40,137 nt of DNA from Escherichia phage phiHAO1-1. The stretch lies in the sequence record PP079211.1, one strand, 5' to 3'. This document shows, in pieces, positions 20,371 to 21,256 of this stretch; the stretch's first letter is position 1, and every line of letters starts with the position of its first letter. The notes under the pieces are model-generated. The model saw only the letters and a list, made by a program, of their open reading frames with translations. It searched no databases and was not told where the DNA came from. The translations under genes and the position numbers were made by a program.

Positions 20371-21256
20371 ATGTCTCAATCAGTTTATGCCGAGTTCGGC
20401 GTTAGCTCTAATGCAATCACTGGTTCCGTTGAGGACCTGAACGAACACCAGAAGTCTATGCTTGAACAGGACGTAGCTGTTCGTGATGGCGATGACGCTA
20501 TTACATTCAAGCAACTGGAAGCCGAAAACGAAGAGGCGACCGAAGAAGACGAGAACGTCGAAGATACTGAAGGTGAAGAAGACCACGAGTCCGATGACGA
20601 AGAGTCTGAGACCGATGGTGAGCAGCCTGAGTTCATCGAACTTGGTGATGCACCGAAAGAGCTGACCGAAAGTGTCACCGCTCTGGATGAAAACGAAGCT
20701 GCATTCGACGACATGGTGTCTTCTGCTGTAGAAGCTGGCAAGGTCACTGCTGATGAAATTACCGCTATCAAGGCTGAATACGCCAAGGACGGTAAGCTGT
20801 CTGACGCATCCTACGCTAAGTTGCAGGAAGCAGGTTACACCAAGCGTTTCGTTAGATTCGTTTATCCGTGGTCAGGAAGCTCTGGCTGAACAGTATGCTG
20901 CTGGTGTGGTTCGCTACGCTGGTGGTGCTGAACAGTTTAATCGCATCCTGTCACACCTTGAGTCCAACGACCCGTCAACTCGTGAAGCACTGGAAGCTGC
21001 TATCGTTCGTAAGGACATTGCGACTACCAAAGCTCTGCTGAATCTGGCTGGCAAGACTCTGGGTAAAGCTGTGGGTGTTAAACCTCAGCGTACCATCACC
21101 ACTCAGGCTAAACCTGTGGTCGCACCTAAGGCTCCTCAGACCGAAGCATTCAGCTCCAAGGCTGACATGATTAAGGCTATGAGTGACCCGCGATACCTGC
21201 GTGACGCTAAGTACACGATGGAAGTTCGCGCTAAGGTAGCTGCCTCAAGCCTGTAG
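20371..21256 (+). CDS. Scaffolding protein (T7 gp9 homolog), reading frame interrupted by an apparent +1 frameshift near 20854
   Basis: N-terminal part in frame of 20371 (stops at 20889); C-terminal part (SFIRGQEALAEQY ... MIKAMSDPRY) continues in the +1 frame to 21256; both halves align to recalled T7 gp9. Confidence 0.8.

Follow-up and report, generated by a model that had tools for sequence, protein, structure and literature searches.

The hallmark of programmed frameshifting is conservation. The +1 site of prfB has a Shine-Dalgarno-like sequence about 3 nt upstream, and in yeast Ty3 the incoming tRNA binds out of frame. Gene 9 of T7 is essential for prohead assembly, and large amounts of its scaffold product are required, in the order of one hundred copies for each prohead. 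Two phage cases are described in a recoding review (PMC5009743): the -1 site in gene 10 of the T7 group, and Listeria phage PSA, where +1 frameshifting occurs in structural genes. A bacterial precedent is the essential rpoB gene of E. coli, in which a +1-nt insertion is tolerated by way of spontaneous shifting on CCC-AGG-C (Huseby et al. 2020, PMC7022156). The P-site CCC in rpoB is slippery and re-pairs on CCA, the A-site AGG is the rarest E. coli codon, and shifting is merely 5% without feedback, with translational feedback raising the output. The authors of that work put their emphasis on re-pairing at the first and second codon positions and on the slippery CCC (PMC7022156).

The locus we compare with these systems is the scaffolding gene of Escherichia phage phiHAO1-1 (PP079211.1). 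The window, meaning the whole stretch of 40,137 nt that was analysed, is a complete or nearly complete Kayfunavirus genome (K1F-like, T7 group). Gene 9 sits between a T7-type portal gene 8 (18714-20282) and the major capsid gene 10 (21383-22426), in the same order as in relatives, and the ribosome-binding site annotated for gene 9 of Penshu1 has the same relative position as the one in Table 1. A phage promoter, ACTAAACTATCACTATAGGGAGA, lies directly 3' of the gene at 21258-21280 and fits the K1F consensus quoted in the ASO2B annotation. Instead of one uninterrupted frame of about 294 codons, the gene is split at 20852/20853, and it measures 886 nt against 885 nt in close relatives. The first frame runs from the ATG at 20371 to a TGA at 20887-20889 and encodes 172 residues. 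The +1 frame has its last upstream stop at 20729, is open from 20732 onward and ends in the TAG at 21254-21256.

A sequence-only reading of this DNA had described a gene 9 split in this way, with gp9-like protein on both sides, and the description holds. When the gp9 proteins of K1F (YP_338119.1) and phiHAO2-2 (gp34) are used as tblastn queries, residues 1-161 align in frame 1 (20371-20853) at 97.5-98.8% identity and residues 161-294 in frame 2 (20852-21253) at 97.8-98.5%. Both open reading frames match the same Pfam family, PF05396 ('Phage T7 capsid assembly protein', Phage_T7_Capsid). The frame-1 product covers profile positions 2-59 with E = 1.5e-13, and the +1-frame part covers positions 54-188 of 188 with E = 3e-49. 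For comparison, intact K1F gp9 scores E = 1.1e-67, and joining the two phiHAO1-1 frames regains the full domain. The break therefore falls within the one conserved Pfam domain, and because it does, the 172-residue product would lose the roughly 70% of PF05396 that lies downstream if the insertion is real. A sequence search for a solved gp9 structure gave no PDB match. The codons of the out-of-frame tail are AGA TTC GTT TAT CCG TGG TCA GGA AGC TCT GGC TGA, and the peptide they encode has no counterpart in gp9 of the aligned relatives. The break stands in the sequence itself, and chance does not come into it.

Table 1. Features of the gene 9 locus of phiHAO1-1, in window coordinates.
Feature	Coordinates	Strand	Basis
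Ribosome-binding site AAGGAG, gene 9	20356..20361	+	Sequence reading; 9 nt upstream of ATG
Gene 9 (scaffolding protein), N-terminal 161 codons, original frame	20371..20853	+	tblastn, Pfam
Insertion, TT against a single T in every relative; shifts the frame	20852..20853	+	Alignments, 61-nt query, 22-mer searches
Out-of-frame tail of the shortened ORF	20854..20889	+	Translation RFVYPWSGSSG*
Private G to A (Val to Ile in the gp9 frame)	20864	+	Alignment, 18 unique gene 9 sequences
Gene 9, C-terminal 133 codons and stop, +1 frame	20855..21256	+	tblastn, Pfam

No relative that we examined shares this break. The closest genome, Escherichia phage phiHAO2-2 (PP079212.1), shares 99.4% identity with phiHAO1-1 over the late region, and the two are collinear from the first to the last base. 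Megablast with the gene 9 region matched 221 phage records, most of them at 95-99% identity. Six annotated relatives have a continuous 885-nt gene 9 CDS, and 17 other unique gene 9 sequences are all uninterrupted at 885 or 888 nt; only phiHAO1-1 has 886. The possibility had been raised that gp9 of some relatives truly ends near 20889. We looked for such a protein and found none, gene 9 being continuous at 885 or 888 nt in every relative examined. At the break itself, a 61-nt query matched 381 phage records by blastn. A record sharing the insertion would score 98.4% or 100% on this query, and neither value was reached among the best 60 of the 381, all of which span 60 nt at 96.7% identity (one gap and one mismatch). 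The 22-mer carrying the insertion has no exact match in IMG/VR and none in the JGI metagenome contigs; the 21-mer without it, our positive control, is present in 10 IMG/VR contigs. Exact searches of a collection of 15 billion proteins with the 172-aa ORF, the +1-frame ORF and the capsid protein gave no match. Across the best of the 381 phage records, both metagenomic collections and the 17 gene 9 sequences, the frame break is not conserved among homologues. Because none of several hundred related phages was found with the insertion, judged on the best matches among the 381, the extra base is most likely an error or a one-off mutation rather than programmed recoding.

The alignment also settles which base is extra. 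Relatives read CGT TTC GTA GAT TCG TTT GTC where phiHAO1-1 reads CGT TTC GTT AGA TTC GTT TAT C, so the addition is one T of the TT at 20852-20853. The sequence-only reading had the zero-frame codons right (CGT TTC GTT AGA TTC) and picked the wrong letter, the A at 20854, as superfluous. Its expectation that removing one base restores a gp9-like protein is borne out, since taking away either the T or the A gives RFV-DSF. AGA enters the frame simply because a T inserted after GT turns GTA GAT into GTT AGA T.

Gene 9 of phiHAO1-1 has only two private differences among the 18 unique sequences, the extra T and the G to A change at 20864, which lies 12 nt downstream of the insertion. A single private substitution placed at random in an 886-nt gene would fall this close to the insertion with a chance of about 24/886, or 2.7%. 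This suggests that the two changes are one local patch of poor base calls. Going through the sequence by eye, we considered whether one event (a duplication, an inversion, or a conversion involving the near-repeats TTCGT.A and TTCGTTT) might account for both changes, and no simple one yields both. Transcriptional slippage at the break was also rejected, because the run is merely TT. The +1-frame part shows no decay and its sole private change is conservative, so the insertion is either unreal or very recent.

The most ambitious explanation is that GUU_AGA_U is an evolved, programmed +1 frameshift of the hungry-codon kind, that it is the normal route to the scaffold protein, and that the 172-residue product is a second functional form. 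The geometry alone argues for this, since AGA, a low-usage codon, occupies the A site and the protein goes on exactly in the +1 frame, and Listeria phage PSA provides a phage precedent (PMC5009743). However, the gene 9 break lacks the look of a recoding signal. None of the relatives has the site, not even genomes that are 98-99% identical in gene 9. A slippery P-site codon of the CUU_U or CCC_N type is absent from the break; in the +1 frame the P-site GUU would have to re-pair on UUA, with a mismatch at the first position and at best two of three pairs. There is no Shine-Dalgarno-like (GGAGG-like) motif in the 15 nt before GTT, ACACCAAGCGTTTC. The downstream RNA fold begins about 40 nt from the break and is not significant: its z is -1.44, and 17 of 200 shuffled sequences form a fold that is as good or better. 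The flanks match those of relatives in which no shift is needed, and hence nothing beside the break can have evolved for shifting.

AGA is a low-usage codon in this phage, but it is not avoided. Across the 9488 codons of 20 other phiHAO1-1 genes it encodes arginine in the ordinary way at 39 positions, 15 of them in gene 17. AGA had been taken for the rarest arginine codon of E. coli, which is a mistake; AGG is the rarest (PMC7022156), and it is also rarer than AGA in those 20 genes, with 24 uses against 39. The earlier comparison to hungry-codon recoding thus finds no specific support, and the accompanying remark that an indel or a mutation is at least as likely gains from the break being unique. 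We believe evolved recoding at gene 9 is very unlikely, and as the normal route to scaffold protein we would give it next to no credence.

A related idea is that the two frames make two separate polypeptides, the 172-residue N-terminal one and a C-terminal fragment started internally, for example at the +1-frame ATG at 20753, which opens an ORF of 167 codons. The trouble with this idea is that the break cuts through one Pfam domain and does not fall between domains. There is also no good ribosome-binding site before 20753, a product begun there would start with 34 unrelated residues, and none of the 17 other unique gene 9 sequences is split in such a way. We find it barely conceivable that the gene works in two pieces.

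What genuine recoding looks like in this group can be seen next door. Gene 10 of phiHAO1-1 has the T7-type -1 heptamer G_GTT_TTC at 22405-22411, 13 nt before the 10A stop (22424-22426), and the -1 frame stays open for 49 further codons (FQPSGVSTF...AESNN) to a TAA at 22555-22557. Judging by its sequence this frame would give a 10B-like minor capsid protein. The frameshift is conserved, and it is annotated in Penshu1. A strong GC-rich hairpin followed by a T-run lies 3' of the 10B frame at 22559-22591, the position of the T-phi terminator in T7. The 10A/10B pair (G_GUU_UUC) is a neighbour in the same genome and tells us that phages of this group do use recoding, in the form of a -1 shift on a tandem slippery heptamer that is conserved and makes a minor extended form beside the main product. 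The gene 9 break differs on each count: it is unique, it has no slippery sequence, and it would leave no normal product at all. The conserved and annotated site in gene 10 shows what the true recoding of the group is, and this argues against a programmed site in gene 9.

It is harder to dismiss the explanation that the extra T really was in the sequenced DNA as a recent mutation. This could have come about in two ways. The genome may be defective and carried along with functional phage at high multiplicity, or it may be a leaky mutant in which accidental +1 shifts by a small share of the ribosomes, as they wait at AGA or at some other point from 20732 to 20886, yield barely sufficient full-length scaffold. 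The leaky case would resemble rpoB CCC-AGG-C. Both are +1-nt insertions in an essential gene, in both a low-usage arginine codon of the AGR type enters the frame, and a shift at exactly that codon restores the wild-type peptide; the 5% spontaneous shifting in rpoB (PMC7022156) is the precedent. With the +1 frame open from 20732 onward, a 155-nt stretch could in principle rescue the protein, and the sequence after the break has not decayed, as one would expect of a very young event.

The likeness to rpoB does not go very far, however. There the shift relies on the slippery CCC, and here GUU on UUA mismatches at the first codon position and re-pairs poorly. No run of four or more identical bases occurs in the zero-frame codons from 20732 to 20889. 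The A-site codon of rpoB is the rarest of all; AGA, by contrast, is read normally at the 39 positions in 20 genes mentioned above. T7 requires large amounts of scaffold, and gene 9 is not known to have a feedback up-regulation like that of rpoB. The DNA change itself is putative in phiHAO1-1. Revertants losing one T would quickly sweep a stock, and the variant was not found elsewhere, whether among the best 60 of the 381 phage records, in IMG/VR or in the JGI metagenomes. Taken as a whole we judge a real mutation, defective or leaky, to be unlikely. A bolder version would have a viable phage with a real T and efficient +1 shifting at GUU_AGA_U, in which the incoming tRNA would bind out of frame, by analogy with Ty3, and no slippery P-site codon would be needed. 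We see only a very slim chance of this.

This leaves the explanation that we prefer. The extra T is most probably a sequencing, base-calling or assembly error, and the G to A at 20864 probably belongs to the same low-quality patch. The deposited record would then contain a local error in which GTA GAT was written as GTT AGA T (20851-20857), with the second private change 12 nt downstream, and the living phage would have a normal 885-nt gene 9 and a normal 294-residue scaffold protein with no recoding. The change has the marks of an artefact: it is a singleton among close relatives, it breaks a conserved essential gene, it alters the length of a base run and an odd call lies nearby. We infer from these that it is absent from the actual DNA. 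Since gene 9 is essential, a phage grown for sequencing should have a working copy. Three points run counter to an error. The rest of phiHAO1-1 looks clean, and an assembly that is error-prone in general would look different. A change from T to TT is a lengthening of a very short run and is not the classic long-homopolymer error. Finally, a rescued +1-nt insertion in an essential E. coli gene is documented (PMC7022156).

The cleanness of the rest of the genome can be stated with some precision. With all K1F and phiHAO2-2 proteins as tblastn queries, no conserved gene of phiHAO1-1 except gene 9 falls into two frames, and it alone is split among 23 core K1F proteins. Applied to seven complete relatives, the same test turned up one further case, in one of the seven. 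This is gene 16 of phiHAO2-2, also essential, which is split by an extra T at about 28730 (position 29570 in phiHAO1-1): CAGAGTTCT in phiHAO2-2 against CAGAGTCT in phiHAO1-1. Residues 1-92 and 93-1295 of K1F gp16 match phiHAO2-2 in different frames, and its record annotates a shortened gene 16 (29014..32343) with 564 nt left unannotated; gene 16 of phiHAO1-1 is intact (29295-33179). As in gene 9, a T has become TT and splits an essential core gene in one record only, and gene 16 is otherwise 97% conserved. The two cases differ in that this is another gene in another record. The phiHAO2-2 case, one of seven genomes sampled, shows that lone one-base insertions in essential genes do occur among the deposited genomes of this group, which agrees with an ordinary artefact in gene 9.

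Other parts of the window differ from phiHAO2-2. Between tail genes 11 and 12, at 23283-23510, is a 75-codon ORF with matches to DUF3850 (E = 2.8e-19) and to an ASCH domain. K1F and phiHAO2-2 lack this ORF, their genes 11 and 12 overlapping as TAATG, and a 228-nt ORF stands at the equivalent place in TM1, Penshu1 and ASO2B; on this distribution the space between genes 11 and 12 looks like a mobile accessory gene slot. The early region from 1106 to 2060 is a mosaic when set against phiHAO2-2. The homologue of phiHAO2-2 gp02 is interrupted by about 260 bp at 1106-1366, its halves lying at 1003-1110 and 1359-1463 in different frames, and phiHAO2-2 has no equivalent of an ORF at 1538-1885 whose helix-turn-helix (BrkDBD) matches are weak.

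There is nothing unusual about the gene 9 break, which matters chiefly for annotation. The record ought to mark gene 9 as frameshifted, probably because of an error, and no 172-residue scaffold protein should be listed as its product; gene 16 of phiHAO2-2 calls for the same treatment. The interest of the locus would change if the insertion proved real in a plaque-forming stock. Gene 9 would then be the second natural case of an essential gene rescued by spontaneous +1 frameshifting, and the first such rescue at a non-slippery GUU_AGA site. If shifting at GUU_AGA_U were efficient as well, it would be a new type of bacterial shift site, one that arose spontaneously in an essential and highly expressed phage gene.
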